Shown in pieces: positions 3,662-39,853 of a DNA stretch of 64,000 nt. This DNA comes from an uncultured bacterium (GTDB lineage: Bacteria; Bacteroidota; Bacteroidia; Bacteroidales; Bacteroidaceae). Under the pieces are notes generated by a model. It made no database searches. It was not told the origin of the DNA and worked only from the letters and a program-made list of their open reading frames with translations. Position 1 is the stretch's first letter. Each line of letters starts with the position of its first letter. The stretch is from NCBI GenBank assembly GCA_945867195.1, contig CAMBHR010000003.1, positions 3,958-67,957 on the forward strand, read 5' to 3'. The position numbers were made by a program, and so were the translations under genes.

Positions 3662-3820
3662 ATGGAAAAGAACAAGAACATCGTCATGCTCCGCTATCGT
3701 ATAGACCGATACAGAGCCATGGGTAACGGCGCGATGTGCCAAGCCCTGGAAAGAGAATTGAACCGTTTGACAACGTCTGCGAAAAACCAAGGAAGTACAT
3801 CTTCTTATTCGGAAATGTAA
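3662..3820 (+). CDS. 52-aa small hypothetical protein (not in ORF track)
   Basis: Hand translation MEKNKNIVMLRYRIDRYRAMGNGAMCQALERELNRLTTSAKNQGSTSSYSEM; A-rich start context, upstream promoter, downstream terminator. Confidence 0.6.
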   Translation: MEKNKNIVMLRYRIDRYRAMGNGAMCQALERELNRLTTSAKNQGSTSSYSEM

Positions 3821-3841
3821 TTCCTGATGCAAGAATATCAT

Positions 3842-9092: not shown

Positions 9093-11042
9093 TTATTCAT
9101 TGTTCATGGATTCCAGTTCCAGCAAAGCGTTTTCCCAATCCTCTTCGGCTTGCTTTAATTCTCGTTGTATGTCGGCATATTGTTCAAAGAGCTGTGCGTT
9201 GCTGCCGCCTTCGGGCGTAGAGAGCTTTTCTTCGAGCGCGGCTTTGTCCGTTTCGAGCTGCATCACCCGGTTTTCGCACTGTTCCACCAGCTTCTCCACC
9301 TTTCGGCGCAGGCGGTTCTGCTCCTTGCGTTCTTCGTAGGACAGTTTTCCTTCCGAAGGTTCGGTCTTGGATGGTGCAGGTGCGGCGGCTGTCCCCTGCG
9401 AGGGCGACCCGGCGGTATGCAGCTCGTCGAGCGTTTCCATTTCCTTCTTTTGCAGGAAATCGTAAATGCCCCCCAGATGCTCGCGCACCTGTCCGCCGCC
9501 GAACTCATACACTTTTGTCACCAGTCCGTCCAGGAAGTCACGGTCGTGGCTCACCACAATCACCGTGCCGTCGAAAGCCAGGATGGCCTCTTTCAGCACA
9601 TCCTTGGTTCGCATGTCCAGGTGGTTGGTAGGTTCGTCCAGGATGAGGAAGTTGACAGGTTCGAGCAGCAGCTTGATCATGGCCAGACGCGAACGCTCGC
9701 CGCCCGACAGCACCTTGACCTTCTTGTCAGAGGCTTCGCCGCCGAACATGAAGGCTCCCAGGATGTCGCGAATCTTGAGGCGGATGTCGCCTTTGGCCAC
9801 CCGGTCGATGGTGTCGAACACGGTCAGTTCCTCATCGAGTAGCTGCGCCTGGTTCTGGGCGTAGTAGCCAATGCTGACGTTGTGTCCCAACTTGAGGCTG
9901 CCGTCAAAGGGGATTTCGTTCATGATGCACTTCACCAGGGTCGACTTACCCTCGCCGTTCTTGCCCACGAAGGCCACTTTCTCGCCGCGTTTGATGGTGA
10001 GGCTCACCTTTTGGAACACGCAGTGGTCGCCGTAATCCTTGCGCACTTCATCGCAGATGACCGGGTAGTCGCCCGAGCGCGAACAGGGCGGAAACTTCAG
10101 GTGCAGGCAGGCGTTGTCCACCTCGTCCACCTCGATGGGCACAATCTTTTCCAGCTGTTTGATGCGGCTTTGCACCTGTACGGCCTTGGTGGGTTTGTAG
10201 CGGAAGCGTTCGATGAAGTCCTTGATGTCGGCAATTTCCTTCTGCTGGTTTTCGTAGGCGCGGAGCTGCTGTTCGCGGCGTTCGGCCCGCAGGCGCACGA
10301 ACTCGTCGTACTTCACCTTGTAGTCCGTGATTTTTCCGCAGGCTATCTCGAGCGTGCGGTTCGTGACATTGTTGATGAAGGCGCGGTCGTGGCTTACCAG
10401 CACCACAGCCCCTTGCGAGCGGTTCAGGAACTGCTCCAGCCAGCGTATGCTCTCAATGTCGAGGTGGTTGGTGGGTTCGTCGAGCAACAGGATGTCAGGG
10501 CGGCGCAGCAGGAGCTTGGCCAGCTCAATGCGCATACGCCAGCCTCCGGAAAATTCGCGGGTGGGGCGGTTGAAGTCGGCCGGGGCGAACCCCAGTCCCT
10601 GCAGGGTGCGTTCCAGCTCGGCGTGGTAGTTCATGCCGCCCATCATCTGGAAACGCTCACTCTCGTGGGTGAACCGCTCCACCAGCTTCATGTAGCTGGC
10701 ACTTTCGTAGTCAGTGCGGCTGGCCAGCTCGTCGTTCATGCGGGCAATGCGTTCCTGCATTTCGCTGATGTGTTCAAAAGCCTTTTCGGCCTCCTCCATC
10801 ACCGTATGTTCGTCGCTCAGCACCATCACCTGTGGCAGGTAACCGATGGTGATGTCGTTTTGTACGGAAACGGTGCCGCTGGTGGGCTGCTGGCTGCCGC
10901 TGAGGATTTTCAGGAGTGTAGATTTGCCGGCACCGTTCTTGCCGACGAGCGCGATGCGGTCCTTCTTGTTTATAACAAACGACACGTCCGCAAAAAGCGG
11001 ACGTGCGCTGAATTCTACACTGAGATTGTCTACTGATAGCAT
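9093..11042 (-). CDS. ABC-F family ribosome-associated ATPase with C-terminal coiled-coil extension
   Basis: Two intact NBDs (GKNGAGKST/FSGGW/LDEPTNHLD; GKNGEGKST/LSGGE/LDEPTNHLD), no TM segments. Confidence 0.92.
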   Translation of the reverse strand: MLSVDNLSVEFSARPLFADVSFVINKKDRIALVGKNGAGKSTLLKILSGSQQPTSGTVSVQNDITIGYLPQVMVLSDEHTVMEEAEKAFEHISEMQERIARMNDELASRTDYESASYMKLVERFTHESERFQMMGGMNYHAELERTLQGLGFAPADFNRPTREFSGGWRMRIELAKLLLRRPDILLLDEPTNHLDIESIRWLEQFLNRSQGAVVLVSHDRAFINNVTNRTLEIACGKITDYKVKYDEFVRLRAERREQQLRAYENQQKEIADIKDFIERFRYKPTKAVQVQSRIKQLEKIVPIEVDEVDNACLHLKFPPCSRSGDYPVICDEVRKDYGDHCVFQKVSLTIKRGEKVAFVGKNGEGKSTLVKCIMNEIPFDGSLKLGHNVSIGYYAQNQAQLLDEELTVFDTIDRVAKGDIRLKIRDILGAFMFGGEASDKKVKVLSGGERSRLAMIKLLLEPVNFLILDEPTNHLDMRTKDVLKEAILAFDGTVIVVSHDRDFLDGLVTKVYEFGGGQVREHLGGIYDFLQKKEMETLDELHTAGSPSQGTAAAPAPSKTEPSEGKLSYEERKEQNRLRRKVEKLVEQCENRVMQLETDKAALEEKLSTPEGGSNAQLFEQYADIQRELKQAEEDWENALLELESMNNE

Positions 11043-12826: not shown

Positions 12827-12909
12827 CTACTCTTGGAATTGTAGAAAACAAGTCCAAGAGTAGTTGTAACAAGTCCTAGACTAGTTGTAACAAGTCCAAG
12901 AGTAGTTTT
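12827..12909. repeat. Three 21-bp tandem units plus one inverted copy
   Basis: aacaagtccaagagtagttgt / aacaagtcctagactagttgt / aacaagtccaagagtagtttt from 12847; inverted ctactcttggaattgt at 12827-12842. Confidence 0.85.
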
Positions 12910-13020
12910 TTTCAACTCCCTGATTTGTGAACGCAGCTCCGCCACTTGTGGGCGGCCGGTCCGGAAGGAGGCAGATTGGGGCATTGCATTCCCCGTTTTT
13001 GCCGGCCAGTCATTGCATCA

Positions 13021-13348
13021 TTATATATACGTAATTTCCCCTTTGATAAATATTGTTCAAACCTTCAGGAACTGTTCATTTCCCTTTTGAATATCAGCTG
13101 TTTTCATACTGAATGATTGGATTTTCAATCATTCATAGTCAGCCGGCTGCGGGAGGGAGGACAAGTGTATAGTTCAGACGGACTATCGACATTGGCCGAA
13201 CAACGGGAGGACGAAGTTCCGGCAGGAATGAGGAGGATGAATGTTTCTTATCAAAAGCTTCATGGCTAATTGCATTGATTTTCAGCAGGAAACAGGTGGT
13301 GCTGAATGATTGAAGAATAAATGGCAGGTAAAAAACACGTATATATAA
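13021..13348. repeat. Palindromic intergenic element A (two inverted ~90-bp modules)
   Basis: Perfect 12-bp termini ttatatatacgt (13021-13032) / acgtatatataa (13337-13348); both arms align with modules at 30643, 39341 and 39580. Confidence 0.7.
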
Positions 13349-13422
13349 GGTGTCATATTTGCACACTTTGCTTCGCCAAGACAGGCTGCGGCTCGGCAAT
13401 GAAAAGAAAAATGGTTTTTTCT

Positions 13423-13453
13423 TTTGCATTGCTCTCGCCTTGCACTATCTTTG
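13423..13453 (+). promoter_or_regulatory. sigmaA promoter for ompA, overlapped by an inverted repeat
   Basis: TTTG (13423-13426), 19 nt, TATCTTTG (13446-13453). Confidence 0.7.
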
Positions 13454-13501
13454 CACCTCAAATTAGACAAAAAAACCAATCATTTTATTCTTTACGTGTT
13501 T

Positions 13502-30642: not shown

Positions 30643-30735
30643 TATATATATACGTGTTTTTTTCTTTTAAAAATAAGGTTCAAATCTTCATTGCACCCTT
30701 GTTATGTCTGATTGCCATCTGTTTAGGTATGAATG
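30643..30735 (+). repeat. Solo copy of the ~90-bp intergenic module
   Basis: tatatatatacgtgttttttt...ttcaaatcttca...ttgttatgtctgatt...tgaatg aligns with arms at 13348(-) and 39341(+). Confidence 0.6.
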
Positions 30736-36327: not shown

Positions 36328-36777
36328 ATGAAAGAAACTTCTGCCGAAAAGCATACGGTGGGAACGCCGGTAAAAACGTACCGCCTCCCAGTCAAAAGAT
36401 TTTGCCAAACGCTCGACTTGCGCGATAATCCGGATTTGATAGCCACCTACCGCCGGCTGCACAGCCGGGAAGGCATCTGGCCCGAGATTTTGCAAGGCAT
36501 CCGTGAAGTGGGTATATTAGAAATGGAAATATACCTGCTGGGTACGCGGCTGTTTATGATTGTGGAGATGCCGCAGGAACTGGAGTGGGACGAGGTGATG
36601 TCACGTTTGGCCACATTGCCTAAGCAGGCCGAATGGGAAGCATTGACAGCACAGTACCAGCAGGCAGAGGCAACGGCCACATCGGACGCGAAATGGAAAA
36701 TGATGGAGCGCATTTTCCACCTCTACGAGCATGAAGCCGATAATTCCGAGTACATTTCCGAAGACATTTGTCATTAA
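36328..36777 (+). CDS. L-rhamnose mutarotase family protein
   Basis: RFCQTLDL, YRRLH, IWPEI, EMEIYL motifs. Confidence 0.8.
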   Translation: MKETSAEKHTVGTPVKTYRLPVKRFCQTLDLRDNPDLIATYRRLHSREGIWPEILQGIREVGILEMEIYLLGTRLFMIVEMPQELEWDEVMSRLATLPKQAEWEALTAQYQQAEATATSDAKWKMMERIFHLYEHEADNSEYISEDICH

Positions 36778-37098
36778 AAACTTGAAAAAAACCGGCACTT
36801 CCCTTGCCGTTTCCCTGTGCTTGTACTACTTTTGCCGACATGGTTGCCGGCGAACACGCATTCATTCGCCCCAACAGCCCTGACAGACAGAATGCCACGT
36901 TTCACCTCCTAACCCCTATTCCGCGCCTATTCCGCCGCAGCACCCTTCCGCCAGCGGCCCGGATTGCCACCTACGAAACAGACAGGATCCGATGAACGCA
37001 TTGCCTCCGCGTGCCACCATGAAGGGCAGCGGTCAGGCCATTTAGAGATGTAACAACGAGGCACACAGCCTCCCTTTTTTATTCCGCGTGCGTTCCGT

Positions 37099-37106
37099 TA
37101 CCTTTG
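37099..37106 (+). promoter_or_regulatory. -7 box for the bspA-peptide transcript
   Basis: TACCTTTG about 220 nt upstream of the ATG. Confidence 0.5.
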
Positions 37107-37143
37107 ACTTGATTTAGAACACATACATATATTACTGAGCTTT

Positions 37144-37290
37144 TTGCTCTTGTTTTCTTTCTATCCGAATACCGCCAATATTCAACAACTGGGAACAAGC
37201 AGTATGAAGGTTCACGCCTTTAGGCGTGAGCCGTTCTGTGCTTGTTAGTTGTGAGGCCACTTGGCGGTAGCCCGATAGAAAGGCAAGCAA
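37144..37290 (+). promoter_or_regulatory. Long hairpin in the bspA 5' leader (candidate structured RNA)
   Basis: Nested stems ctttctatc/gatagaaag, taccgccaa/ttggcggta, acaact/agttgt, aacaagca/tgcttgtt, ggttcacgcc/ggcgtgagcc. Confidence 0.6.
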
Positions 37291-37323
37291 TGGAATGGTG
37301 TACGCCTTTTTTTATCCTTTTTC

Positions 37324-38994
37324 ATGAAAAAAATATTTTCACTCCTCACCCTTTTCCTCTGCTTCAACGCGGTGTGGGCACAAAAAACGATGTACACGGT
37401 GTTCAACACCAAGACCGGTACGCTGACGTTCAAGTATGATGAAAACAAGCCGAAGAGTACAGCAAGCCAGCTGGTGTATGATGTTCCTACGTCTTTTTAT
37501 TCCGGACCCAAGTGGTATTCCCACAGGTCAAACATTAAGAAAGTTGTAATTGACACATCGTTCGCTGAAGCACGACCAATTACATGCTTTGAGTGGTTCT
37601 ATAATTGTAGTGCATTGACAGAGATCCAAGGTATGGAGAACCTCAATACTTCTGAGGTAACGGATATGATCGAAATGTTCTATGGTTGCTCCAGCCTCAC
37701 TTCTCTTGACCTCTCAAACTTCAATACCGCCAAGTTGCAATATATGTACTCTATGTTCTATGGTTGCTCAGGCCTCACCTCTCTCAATCTGTCAAGTTTC
37801 AATACAAGTAATGTGATATATATGCACGCTATGTTCTCTGATTGCTCAGGCCTCACCTCTCTTGACCTGTCAAACTTCAACACCGCCAAGGTGACGAATA
37901 TGAGTTATATGTTCAATTCTTGTTCAGACCTCGTTACCATATATGCTTCTGACTTGTTCACAACAGAGAGCGTCACTAATTCATCTGGTATGTTTTCCGA
38001 CTGTACCTCTCTTGTAGGAGCCATTTCGTATGACCCCTACAAAGCAGATGCCACCTATGCCAACTACACTACCGGCTATTTCACGTTGAAGGGCAATGTA
38101 ACCACGGAGCATGACTTCACGGGTGAAACCTTATTCAACAACGACAAAAAGATTTACTATAAGGTTTGTCAGGAAGAAGGGTGCCGACAAATAAAATATT
38201 TTGCAGATGCGGCAGGAACTGTCGAAGCTATTCCCAATGAGGATGAAACGGCTTTCAGCGTGGCAACTTACGAATTGCTGGATGCCACAACGTACGACAA
38301 CCAAGCGGTGTTCACCGTGGCTGACTTCACCTACAGCCGCTCGTTTGGCGGGGCAGAATGGACTACGTGGTACGTACCTTTCGACTTGACGCTGACCTCC
38401 GAGCTTTGTGACAAATATGCCTTCTCACGCATCAACAACGTGCATCAGTATGACTTGGACAACAACGGCAGGGCAGAAAAGACCGTGGTGGAGAGCTTCC
38501 GCCAGCAGCCCGGCGTGACGTTGAAGGCCAACTATCCTTACTTGGTGAAGCCGCTCAGCAGTGACTACTGTGACATGGTGCTGCAATTGTCAGATATCAC
38601 TCCCGCACCGGCAGTGACGAACAGCATCGATTGCCAGAGCGTGGACTTCACCTACACCTTCACGGGTACTTACAATGAAATGGGCGAGAGCGGCGCAACG
38701 CTGTACGACCCGTACACGCTGTGGACCAACGGCACATGGCAGCACTTCTACAGCCTGGAATCTATGCGCCACTACCTGACCATCGCACCGCGTCATTCGG
38801 CATCGCCTGCAGCTTCCATCAGCAGCATCGTGCTCTCCGTCATCGGCGAGGAGAACGTGACGGGCATCGTGAACGTCTATGGCGAGGAGCGCAAGGCGAC
38901 GGAGACCTACGACCTGAGCGGCCGCCGTCTGCCGGCAGGAAGTCAGCAAAAGGGACTGGTCATCCGGAACGGAAAAGTGGTTTACAACAAATAA
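37324..38994 (+). CDS. BspA/DUF285-like leucine-rich-repeat surface protein with signal peptide and Prevotella-type T9SS C-terminal domain
   Basis: 26-aa repeats MFxxCSxLTSLDLSNFNTxxV; C-terminus TGI...YDLSGRRL...KGLVIRNGKVV. Confidence 0.85.
   Translation: MKKIFSLLTLFLCFNAVWAQKTMYTVFNTKTGTLTFKYDENKPKSTASQLVYDVPTSFYSGPKWYSHRSNIKKVVIDTSFAEARPITCFEWFYNCSALTEIQGMENLNTSEVTDMIEMFYGCSSLTSLDLSNFNTAKLQYMYSMFYGCSGLTSLNLSSFNTSNVIYMHAMFSDCSGLTSLDLSNFNTAKVTNMSYMFNSCSDLVTIYASDLFTTESVTNSSGMFSDCTSLVGAISYDPYKADATYANYTTGYFTLKGNVTTEHDFTGETLFNNDKKIYYKVCQEEGCRQIKYFADAAGTVEAIPNEDETAFSVATYELLDATTYDNQAVFTVADFTYSRSFGGAEWTTWYVPFDLTLTSELCDKYAFSRINNVHQYDLDNNGRAEKTVVESFRQQPGVTLKANYPYLVKPLSSDYCDMVLQLSDITPAPAVTNSIDCQSVDFTYTFTGTYNEMGESGATLYDPYTLWTNGTWQHFYSLESMRHYLTIAPRHSASPAASISSIVLSVIGEENVTGIVNVYGEERKATETYDLSGRRLPAGSQQKGLVIRNGKVVYNK
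37600..37940 (+). repeat. Intragenic 78-bp coding tandem repeats
   Basis: Units begin at 37678, 37756, 37834 and 37912 (period 78 bp = 26 aa). Confidence 0.85.
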
Positions 38995-39007
38995 ATAATA
39001 GATGATT

Positions 39008-39181
39008 ATGAAGAAACAATATATCAAGCCCGAGATAGCGTCATATGGTGTGCAGCTTGCACAGCTGCTGTGTCTGTCAGGAGTGGACGAAACGGAAGTG
39101 AATTTCGGTGAAGGCTATCCTACCAGAGCCAGAAAGAGTTTTTTTGACAGTATGACAGAAAGCTATCCTGACGAAGAATGA
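39008..39181 (+). CDS. 57-aa acidic peptide with MKKxYxxP...LLCxS N-terminus (not in ORF track)
   Basis: Hand translation MKKQYIKPEIASYGVQLAQLLCLSGVDETEVNFGEGYPTRARKSFFDSMTESYPDEE; starts 13 nt after the bspA stop. Confidence 0.75.
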   Translation: MKKQYIKPEIASYGVQLAQLLCLSGVDETEVNFGEGYPTRARKSFFDSMTESYPDEE

Positions 39182-39223
39182 TGGCTTAACCATCTATCTT
39201 CCCCCGTCCTTCATGGGAACGAC

Positions 39224-39261
39224 AAGGGTCTATGCGCCACGATGGTGGTGTATAGACCCTT
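39224..39261 (+). terminator. Hairpin ending the bspA-peptide unit
   Basis: aagggtctatgcgccac-gatg-gtggtgtatagaccctt, 17-bp stem; weak U tail. Confidence 0.55.
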
Positions 39262-39340
39262 TGCTGTATGGTCAGATTTTCTTGAACTTTACCTGACAAA
39301 ATGAGCATACGGTTTTATTGCTGTCCGCTAATAGTACTTC

Positions 39341-39580
39341 TCTATACGCTTTTTATTCCTCAAAAAAGTATTCACTCTTTCACATGAAGTTTGTTTCTGT
39401 CTGATTCTCAATGGTTTTGGTGTGAAGGCTTACTCGTTCCGCCCTTTACAAGCGTTCACCGTCCGTGTGAATGTTTTGAAATTCAATCCTTCACACTAAA
39501 ACCGTTGAAAATCAGAGGGAAACAAGCTCTGTGTGAAGGTGTGAATGTTTTTTCGGGGGAAAAATTACGTATATATATAC
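39341..39580. repeat. Palindromic intergenic element B (two inverted ~90-bp modules)
   Basis: Arm 1 39341-39428(+), arm 2 39488-39580(-); inner 28-bp ctgattctcaatggttttggtgtgaagg / ccttcacactaaaaccgttgaaaatcag with 3 differences. Confidence 0.75.
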
Positions 39581-39676
39581 GCGCGCGAAAGGAGTATCTG
39601 CCCAACAGACAGCGGTTTTCGCAGCGTGAACGGTCCGCTTCGGCTGCCCAGCCGGACAAGGCGTGGAGTAACACTT

Positions 39677-39760
39677 CACAAGTCCGGGACTTGTCCGCAC
39701 AACTCGGGGAGTAGGAAAAACAAGTCCAGGACTTGTGAAAACAAATCCCGGACTTGGTTA
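39677..39760. repeat. Four 21-bp tandem units with palindromic ACAAGTCC-N-GGACTTGT core
   Basis: Units at 39677, 39698, 39719 and 39740. Confidence 0.85.
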
Positions 39761-39853
39761 GAATGGCATTTCGTAACCTCAACACCTTATAAGTAGGTGA
39801 TAGCCATAAATTCTGTTATTGTAGACTTGGCTCTTCTGAAAGGGTCAATGGTT

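Follow-up and report, generated by a model that had tools for sequence, protein, structure and literature searches.

A composite of inverted arms and a 21-bp array in an uncultured gut Bacteroidales genome as a putative modular, non-autonomous mobile element

Positions 39341-39760 of the 64,000-nt stretch of DNA analyzed here (the window) hold a composite repeat, locus B, in which two inverted arms of about 90 nt are followed by an array of short palindromic units. The stretch belongs to the metagenome-assembled genome (MAG) of an uncultured, Prevotellamassilia/Alloprevotella-like gut Bacteroidales bacterium (2.62 Mb, 110 contigs, 54.8% GC), and a second composite, locus A, lies near 12847-13345. 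The initial annotation of the window proposed a unit of ~420 to 500 bp in which the array and arms move or work jointly and which may mark sites of gene gain. Locus B raises the question of whether its parts belong to one element and, if so, what kind of element it is. On the evidence below, locus B is likely an old copy, without genes and probably inert, of a modular, non-autonomous element that resembles a MITE (miniature inverted-repeat transposable element) and carries an internal minisatellite. Contigs of this genome are denoted by C, loci from other genomes by L, and genus relatives by G.

Composition and distribution of the composite

Both the arms and the array expected at locus B were recovered. 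A repeat search delimited a palindrome with arms at 39343-39431 and 39485-39573 (89 nt, 76% complementary) around a 53-nt loop, and an iterated nhmmer arm model placed the arms at 39341-39428(+) and 39488-39575(-), nearly the coordinates first proposed, with E=1e-20 for the right arm. About 100 nt beyond the palindrome, the repeat search found a direct repeat of 21-nt period, with unit starts at 39678, 39699, and 39720 and palindromic cores (ACAAGTCCnGGACTTGT); the array spans 39678-39757, and the majority of its units are ACAAGTCCnGGACTTGT-type palindromes. An alternating (CG)n(TA)n run terminates the proximal arm (39566-39586), and in the alignment of copies the CGCGCG-TATATA junction is conserved at proximal arms only. 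The claimed agreement in order with locus A, whose parts are oriented opposite to those of locus B, held in pairwise BLAST, run in place of a dot plot. Two collinear antiparallel segments covering ~200 nt were returned: positions 13022-13135 of A matched 39577-39468 of B (114 nt, 69%, 39.2 bits), and 12846-12931 matched 39759-39675 (86 nt, 70%, 35.6 bits). The top score among 100 shuffles was 25.6 bits, and the match is therefore not confined to the short TATATATACGT sequence, an outcome that would have refuted the claimed agreement.

Across the genome, the arm model identified 156 arms, which form 67 convergent pairs with loops of 59 to 245 nt. The unpaired arms lie mostly at contig ends, and the repeats therefore break the assembly. 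An array, defined as at least two units in 21-nt register within 300 nt of a pair, is present on exactly one side of 58/67 pairs, at a stereotyped distance (median, 112 nt), on both sides of 2, and on neither side of 7, 3 of which are within ~60 nt of a contig end. Within a pair, the arms consistently differ, the proximal type reading CGCGCG-TATATACGTA...CCCCGAAAAA and the distal type TCTATACGC...CCTCAAAAAA in the copy alignment, which suggests that whole composites were copied and not single arms. Tandem amplification of arms within one copy can also occur, judging from a locus of the sister species (L156, positions 228-812; orthologue of C103), where three tandem - arms, spaced by ~170 nt, come after a single + arm.

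The genome has 118 arrays in which 17-nt palindromic cores repeat with a 21-nt period, all of them intergenic, and no copy overlaps a called gene. The distance to an arm is at most 300 nt for 69 of the 118 (median, 112 nt). Solitary arrays reach 6 to 8 units, with no arm within kilobases; contig C6 (70 kb) carries seven arrays and no arms (e.g., 10815-10936 and 39629-39730), and C1 carries six arrays. Where the flanking genes share a strand, the order upstream gene-arms-spacer-array-downstream gene is preferred 21:6. In this abundant uncultured gut lineage, the repeats account for a noticeable part of intergenic DNA, and many contigs terminate in them.

Neither the 60 genomes of the same family nor the 12 relatives compared with locus B by BLAST gave a match. 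The matches obtained were confined to this species and its sister, whose genome (SUG461) has 40 or more such loci; the family is therefore very narrow in sequence but not in architecture. By these sequence comparisons, the composite is one of ~70 copies of a mobile intergenic repeat belonging to an apparently undescribed, lineage-restricted family.

Boundaries and class of the moving unit

Six young copies (C38, two on C43, C15, C18, and C10) align with a sharp common start and end between unrelated flanks. Their unit of 638 to 640 bp opens with CTGAAGTTTCGG, continues through a leader (~40 nt), the array, a spacer (~105 nt), an arm, a loop (143 nt), the inverted arm, and a tail (~75 nt), and closes with CCGAAACTTCAG; one intact composite spans C43:535-1172. 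The CTGAAGTTTCGG/CCGAAACTTCAG pair constitutes 12-bp outer terminal inverted repeats (TIRs) in the youngest subfamily, and AT-rich target duplications of 7 to 8 bp (TAATTTA, TAATATA, and CCTCATAA) flank the three copies with both ends intact. The TATATATACG ends of the arms were considered as TA-target termini of the moving unit and were rejected for the young subfamily because similarity runs ~75 nt past the distal arm and ~45 nt past the array.

Insertion polymorphism was found in relatives. One sister locus (L148) is a full composite with an outer repeat, and the corresponding site in this genome is empty, with flanks 35 nt apart (C9:46489-46524); the insertion changes no gene content. Locus A is absent from G008 and G001, where the proS-ompA spacer is 235 and 492 nt, compared to 949 nt here, again with no gene difference. 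Exact junctions at these filled and empty sites are not resolvable given the divergence. Other sister composites are orthologous and align through element and flanks at ~92% (L128/C36, L131/C20, L132/C47, and L129/C91), and one (L141) joins the flank of the C8 copy to the C2 copy (C8:10439-11974, C2:110061-111877), a synteny break at the elements.

The shared boundaries, the outer TIRs, the one-sided arrays at 58/67 pairs, and the filled/empty site in the sister together establish that array and arms move as one mobile unit, in which the arms are internal and not the ends. The proposal of joint travel is thus upheld, but not in its details: the intact unit is ~640 bp, larger than the 420 to 500 bp envisaged; the arms do not bound it; and the array is also an independent module. 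Seeing array, spacer, and arms as one mobile unit avoids a locus-by-locus misreading of its parts as regulatory sites, CRISPR-like arrays, or RNA genes.

Locus B itself retains little of the outer architecture. Its identity to every other copy is at most 77%, comparison with intact copies revealed no recognizable outer repeat or CTGAAGTTTCGG terminus on either side, and no target duplication was seen. On the array side only a degenerate leader (…GGTGTTGAGGTTACGAAATGCCATTCT…) is left, which aligns to the 'GATGATATGCCTTTTCC' leader of intact copies. Its spacer is kept within a subfamily that includes the copies on C51, C36, C53, C43, C10, and C15, among others (73 to 77% by BLAST). Judged from these alignments, locus B is an old, decayed copy; with its ends decayed, it would no longer be mobile, and the low maximal identity together with the lack of recognizable ends indicates that it is probably inert and without function.

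Classical bacterial MITEs (Correia/NEMIS, ERIC, and RUP) are non-coding, high-copy, intergenic sequences that fold into long hairpins if transcribed. The composite is likewise small (~420 to 640 bp), non-coding, multicopy (67 pairs), dispersed outside genes, and hairpin prone, with TIRs present in the youngest subfamily and not recognizable at locus B. It is larger and more modular than these elements, reaching ~640 bp with an internal minisatellite and an internal palindrome of 230 to 420 bp. The closest published analogue, though not a relative in the sense of membership, is BrickBuilt, which together with MITEPgRS/464 of Porphyromonas gingivalis represents MITEs with a minisatellite (Klein et al. 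2015, PMC4596501). BrickBuilt is an intergenic MITE in which a 23-nt minisatellite lies between leader and tail, with 12-nt inverted ends and IS5-like cognates (PMC4596501). Both are non-autonomous intergenic elements of Bacteroidales with a spacer-less internal array (23 nt there and 21 nt here), a variable number of units, a unique leader and tail, 12-nt TIRs, often partial copies, and a narrow host range. However, by reading against the published consensus, neither the 23-nt unit, the GAGACCTTTGCA-type TIR, nor homology of leader or tail was found here: the IS5-like GAGACCTTTGCA repeat bears no sequence relation to CTGAAGTTTCGG, and cognate ISPg elements are present there, whereas no cognate transposase was found here. 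BrickBuilt also has 19 copies, compared to ~70 here (four times as many), and lacks the large internal palindrome and the link to helicase genes, while palindromic units are a feature of the present family.

The palindromes invite two further explanations that place their function in the host or in RNA. The locus B palindrome has an RNA folding energy of -105.9 kcal/mol (z=-13.7) for the + strand and of -84.9 kcal/mol for the other, a difference of 21 kcal/mol in favor of the + strand; as DNA, it folds at -51.7 kcal/mol. Selection at the RNA level was considered on the basis of G·U strand asymmetry, which gives no decisive answer: the family-wide asymmetry is weak (38/56, p=0.02, with copies that are not independent) and tracks element orientation, not host transcription. 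Within the array units, Watson-Crick pairing exceeds the independent expectation at 7/8 pairs, and the central pair frequently exchanges CG for GC and the reverse (280:89), which fits hairpin-forming or dyad-symmetric sites.

Proteobacterial repetitive extragenic palindromes (REPs), bacterial interspersed mosaic elements (BIMEs), and REPINs form extragenic palindrome clusters and mosaics, with the single-copy gene of a REP-associated tyrosine transposase (RAYT) between inverted repeats and gene-less doublets dispersed. The present family resembles them in its clustered extragenic palindromes (118 arrays), its mosaic motifs, a protein gene between inverted repeats, and dispersed gene-less forms. 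It could accordingly be read as host-adapted REP/BIME-like palindromes kept for a role in termination, mRNA 3'-end protection, or as sites for nucleoid proteins or gyrase, to which the tandem short palindromic units, the exclusively extragenic copies, the many solitary arrays 35 to 50 nt past stop codons, the within-unit covariation, the stability of the arm pair, and the 21:6 orientation bias would all be suited. We regard this as improbable. A search for RAYT (Y1 HUH transposase, PF01797) found none in this genome (91% complete), while control genomes gave matches, and the family is therefore not a REP/RAYT system in the strict sense; moreover, the flanked gene is a VapE/DUF3874 helicase gene, the arms measure 90 nt compared to 20 to 40 nt, and the TIRs and target duplications of the youngest copies have no counterpart in REPINs. 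The gene unit upstream of locus B has its own conserved terminator, empty sites in relatives are without consequence, and the weak folding asymmetry follows the element and not host transcription.

Divergence between the sister species points the same way. Over five orthologous pairs, arms are 90.2% identical, loops 88%, arrays 82%, and spacers 75%, compared to 91.7% in other intergenic DNA and 94.7% in genes. In orthologous gene-less copies, divergence thus equals or exceeds that of other intergenic DNA, with array and spacer outpacing it, and these copies give no sign of conservation for host function. The same divergence bears on the idea of a family of structured non-coding RNA genes of ~350 to 450 nt, which the very stable predicted folds and a ~340-nt stretch conserved in one subfamily (from the loop through arm and spacer to the array) might suggest. 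That idea is highly improbable: Rfam gave no match at the gathering threshold over the whole window, and at permissive settings only spurious microRNA-hairpin look-alikes on the arm palindrome; reading of the consensus revealed no TAnnTTTG promoter-like box; copies are 70 to 80% identical with whole-module insertions and deletions; and TIRs and target duplications speak for transposition.

Helicase genes and origin-like modules

The modules of the composite recur beside genes for VapE-like helicases. On C63 (12449-13753), a 434-aa open reading frame (ORF) with VapE-like (PF05272) and DUF3874 domains is placed between a + arm and a - arm, and its homologues in five other genomes (54 to 81% identity) are arm-flanked likewise. 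The arms of C63, L081, L083, and L085 enclose the VapE-like gene together with the 21-bp array, which in C63-type cassettes lies after the left arm and before the helicase gene's promoter; VapE is the sole gene in the C63 and L081 cassettes. In L094 and L095, where arms also flank a VapE gene, a different 22-bp array (CCACAATTGTGG units) lies inside. At C93, C87, and L090 (sister), a complete composite stands directly upstream of VapE in the order arm pair-spacer-array, and the C93 gene opens a low-GC island. L086 was considered as a second example of this order and dropped, its upstream palindrome being a different, GGGGAGAGG-type hairpin. By their sequences, the modules of the gene-less copies are homologous to the VapE-flanking modules. 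The C63-type cassette, a passenger gene between inverted repeats with no transposase, also resembles a mobile insertion cassette, except that the passenger here is always of the same helicase family.

Tandem Repeats Finder was applied to 41 VapE loci drawn from numerous Bacteroidales (including Bacteroides, Phocaeicola, Parabacteroides, and Alloprevotella), of which 32 had enough upstream sequence. An array of period 21 to 23 with 2 to 4 units was present within 600 nt upstream of the projected VapE start in 15/32 loci. The expectation, from the density in 799 kb of control loci, is 0.0165 per locus, or ~0.5 in total. The units vary by VapE lineage and are often palindromic (TCCACATAATGTGGA, CCACAATTGTGG, and TTCACCTGGGTGAA). 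At L118, a goat caecum Bacteroidaceae MAG with a 38%-identical VapE, the inverted arms (~105 nt, 1481-1586 and 3727-3832) are unrelated and carry GGTGGCAGGAGTCCTGCCACC motifs; a 22-bp array of 3.6 units (2266-2345) lies 156 nt upstream of VapE, and a second small gene is within the arms. An array of 21- to 23-bp period upstream of VapE-like genes is therefore a recurrent feature of Bacteroidales, with lineage-specific units. Preservation of the architecture despite full sequence turnover is as expected of protein-binding repeats tied to the adjacent gene and suggests candidate iteron- or operator-like sites, although the covariation of unit and VapE lineage could instead reflect simple linkage. 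DUF3874 is almost absent from the literature; the one paper found assigns it to the C-terminal part of primase-helicases of the BT4734 type (PMC11724360).

These arrays raise the possibility that the composites are orphan origin-like modules, that is, the cis origin of a VapE-type superfamily 3 (SF3) helicase, comprising iterons, a melt site (AT-rich or of alternating purines and pyrimidines), and a palindrome, whose copies were amplified or moved by helicase-dependent replication and not by a transposase. SF3 initiators such as P4 alpha, SaPI Rep, and SV40 T antigen bind repeated sites located beside an AT tract and a palindrome, a precedent that counts in favor of such a module, and at their origins (P4 alpha ori/crr, SaPI/PICI Rep-ori, and the SV40 T-antigen core origin) the repeat sequence is specific to the helicase lineage. 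The likeness extends to repeated, often dyad-symmetric sites beside an AT-rich melt region, a palindrome, and a helicase gene. Iterons are three or more direct repeats of ~17 to 22 bp at whole helical turns, and the composite has 3 to 7 units at exactly 21 bp; adjacency to a candidate initiator gene is seen at C63, C93, C87, and the 15/32 VapE loci, while locus B has no helicase gene nearby. In addition, the two-helical-turn array recurs upstream of VapE genes with lineage-specific units, the composite directly precedes VapE at three loci, the proximal arm has the (CG)n(TA)n junction and A/T tracts, some loops also hold GTGAAGG boxes in 21-nt register, VapE stands alone in two cassettes, and homologues of it occur on virus-like contigs of 4.6 to 15 kb. 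Nevertheless, we consider this explanation unlikely, as the classical outer TIRs and the target duplications of the youngest copies point to transposition, ~70 functional origins would be a hazard to a single chromosome, sequence drift is fast in orthologous arrays and spacers, and no nuclease or primase domain was detected in the 434-aa protein. The known origins differ, too, in that the module here is amplified to ~70 gene-less chromosomal copies with transposon-like ends.

The virus-like contigs comprise small, unannotated 'Bacteriophage sp.' sequences from human faeces that carry VapE homologues of 33 to 37% identity (MT839260.1 [4651 bp], MT838091.1, MT838192.1, and ~480 others), which may be small replicons or satellites. 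On MT838091.1, inverted CGTTGCAGATA arrays of three units bracket a ~3-kb segment holding VapE.

Weighing the helicase link together with the boundaries, the best reading of the family is a minisatellite-bearing, MITE-like element derived from a helicase cassette. An intact member of ~640 bp runs from a 12-bp TIR and leader through 3 to 7 palindromic units, a ~100-nt spacer, the (CG)n(TA)n junction, a ~90-nt arm, the loop, the inverted arm, and a ~75-nt tail to the second TIR, and the forms with a helicase gene read arm-array-promoter-gene-arm or arm pair-spacer-array-promoter-gene. The array may supply putative iteron- or operator-like binding sites for the cassette's SF3-type helicase or a partner protein, placed by a pitch of two helical turns on one face of the DNA, and the arms, studded with GTGAAGG boxes, may act as cruciform- or hairpin-prone cis sites. 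The 640-bp form would be dispersed by a transposase acting in trans on the outer repeats.

Several findings weigh against this reading. No autonomous parent was found, in that no CTGAAGTTTCGG or CAAGTTTCGCAA end pair encloses an ORF in this genome, and a scan of four relatives with a 1-mismatch pattern gave counts no higher than those of the reversed-pattern control. The failure to find a cognate autonomous element or transposase in these five genomes is weak evidence, because assembly is fragmentary and these repeats interrupt many contigs. Target duplications flank three copies only, and one intact sister copy has none. As many as 49/118 arrays are solitary, often 35 to 50 nt past a stop codon, and the array is therefore an independent module as well. 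The array lies outside the TATATACG arm end in gene-less composites and inside the arms in the C63-type cassette, so that derivation of one form from the other is not simple. Finally, among three small VapE-bearing 'Bacteriophage sp.' contigs, an array was present in one (22 bp, not near the gene) and none in the other two.

A stronger role for the helicase, in which the composite is a putative cis-acting origin or recognition module of the VapE/DUF3874 SF3 helicase and the ~70 gene-less copies were spread, or are still replicated, through the helicase in trans, is rather unlikely on present evidence. If true, it would define a class of mobile elements encoding a single protein, a replicative helicase and not a transposase, with iteron arrays of 21 to 23 bp diversifying together with the helicase across Bacteroidales. 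The recurrent two-helical-turn array before VapE genes is the more interesting result, and it makes the iteron/origin reading testable: VapE/DUF3874 genes are very common in Bacteroidales mobile DNA and essentially unstudied, and the upstream array is a testable handle on what their products bind. A further point on which it bears is whether a cassette that encodes only a helicase can spread the cis sites it carries.

Genomic neighborhood and features of the window

The genes around loci A and B are ordinary chromosomal genes. Locus A sits between proS and an OmpA-family gene. Locus B lies 160 nt past the stop (39181) of a 59-codon ORF that trails a DUF285/leucine-rich repeat 'BspA-like' gene, ~80 nt past the terminator hairpin (39224-39261) of this bspA-peptide unit, and 95 nt from the stop (39854) of a convergent C69 peptidase gene, beyond which nadC, prfC, and rmlD follow. 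It is by the relatives of this peptidase that the genome is placed among the uncultured Prevotellamassilia/Alloprevotella-like bacteria. The sole local effect of locus B would be a very stable hairpin between two convergent transcription units. The feature coordinates are collected in Table 1.

Table 1. Parts of the composites and a solitary arm within the window
Locus	Feature	Position	Strand	Basis
B	Array-distal arm, 'TCTATACGC...GGTGTGAAGG' type, with TTCAC/GTGAAGG boxes inside	39341-39431	+	Repeat search; nhmmer, 61 bits; arm type recurs across copies
B	Central loop, 53-59 nt (other copies, 59-245 nt)	39432-39484		Repeat search; nhmmer
B	Array-proximal arm, 'TATATATACGTAATTT...GTGTGAAGG'	39485-39580	-	Repeat search; nhmmer, 74.9 bits, E=1e-20
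B	GC-rich spacer, ~90 nt, with small GTGAAG...CTTCAC hairpin at end	39587-39674	-	BLAST matches spanning 39419-39756; copy alignment
B	21-bp-period array of four units (~39678, 39699, 39720, 39741), three palindromic ACAAGTCCnGGACTTGT-type and one degenerate	39675-39759	-	Repeat search; RNA fold, z=-4.0; genome-wide unit statistics
B	Degenerate array-side end, AATGCCATTCT...GGTTACG...AAGGTGTTGAGG	39760-39800	-	Comparison with intact subfamily
A	Array of three 21-nt units (12847/12868/12889)	12847-12909	+	Repeat search; collinear match to locus B
A	Arm pair, 13024-13113(+) and 13258-13345(-), 144-nt loop, TATATATACG-ended	13024-13345		Repeat search; nhmmer
	Solitary arm with no partner arm nearby; third arm-bearing site of the window	30647-30733 (C3:34604-34690)	+	nhmmer arm model, 33.8 bits

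The suggestion that composites may mark gene-gain sites received weak support. In the sister genome, positions 36731-39852 of the window are replaced by ~260 nt with a different small repeat (the 'GGTTATGAGG' element, with CAAGTTTCG… ends), so that a 3.1-kb block comprising the BspA-like gene, the peptide ORF, and the composite is missing; GGTTAT-type remnants lie at the sister orthologue of the locus B site. A paralogue of the gene pair on C103 is 88% identical (window 36779-39272 vs C103:3652-721, including the structured leader and the terminator hairpin), and a third related bspA-type promoter/leader, preceded by a composite, is at C4:70077-70673. An integration or recombination hotspot, at which the composite marks or mediates the acquisition of accessory genes, could account for the missing block, for the presence of a composite beside each of the three bspA-type units, for the composite that borders the VapE-led low-GC island on C93, and for at least one synteny break between the sister species (L141). 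Such a role is very unlikely. Most copies lie between conserved housekeeping genes, and the insertion polymorphisms of locus A and L148 involve no gene change. The composite after the C103 paralogue is in the opposite orientation and of another subfamily, and the homology of the two loci ends before it. The bspA paralogues differ by 12%, compared to ~5 to 8% between species, so that a loss in the sister and a gain here are equally likely. Because composites were not co-duplicated with the genes and insert elsewhere without gene change, what remains is some association with the bspA accessory gene family.

Other small repeats accompany the composites. A second family of ~230 bp has CAAGTTTCGCAAGT-type inverted ends and internal GGTTATGAGGTTATAAAGTTAC and GTAACTTTATAACCTCATAACC palindromic arrays; in the sister it stands at the locus B site (L001, 6700-6990; orthologous to window ~36780-39850), and it also occurs at C63:14330-14560 and within the composite spacers at C45:17031 and C41:23286. 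It has thus inserted into some composites, and its ends resemble the composite outer repeat (…AAGTTTCG…). Arrays of short …CTATAG… units (GGGAGCTATAGAAATCTATAGCAACCTATAG…) directly follow the distal arm at C23:10855-10950, C24:13400-13570, C12:26400-26510, and C3:71483-71560 (all outside the window), and at C18:493 such units take the place of most of the 21-bp array. The loop of L148 contains GTGAAGGCTTTA boxes in 21-nt register. Past the locus A arms, at 13359-13457, lies a promoter-like module of ~100 nt (…AGGCTGCGGCTCGGCAATGAAAAGAAAAA…CTCGCCTTGCACTATCTTTGC…) that recurs at C9:13174-13245, C19:4685-4787, C87:5090-5285, and many other sites; it has more than 30 occurrences in the genome and is also present in relatives G006 and G001, directly 5' of genes and often as tandem pairs.

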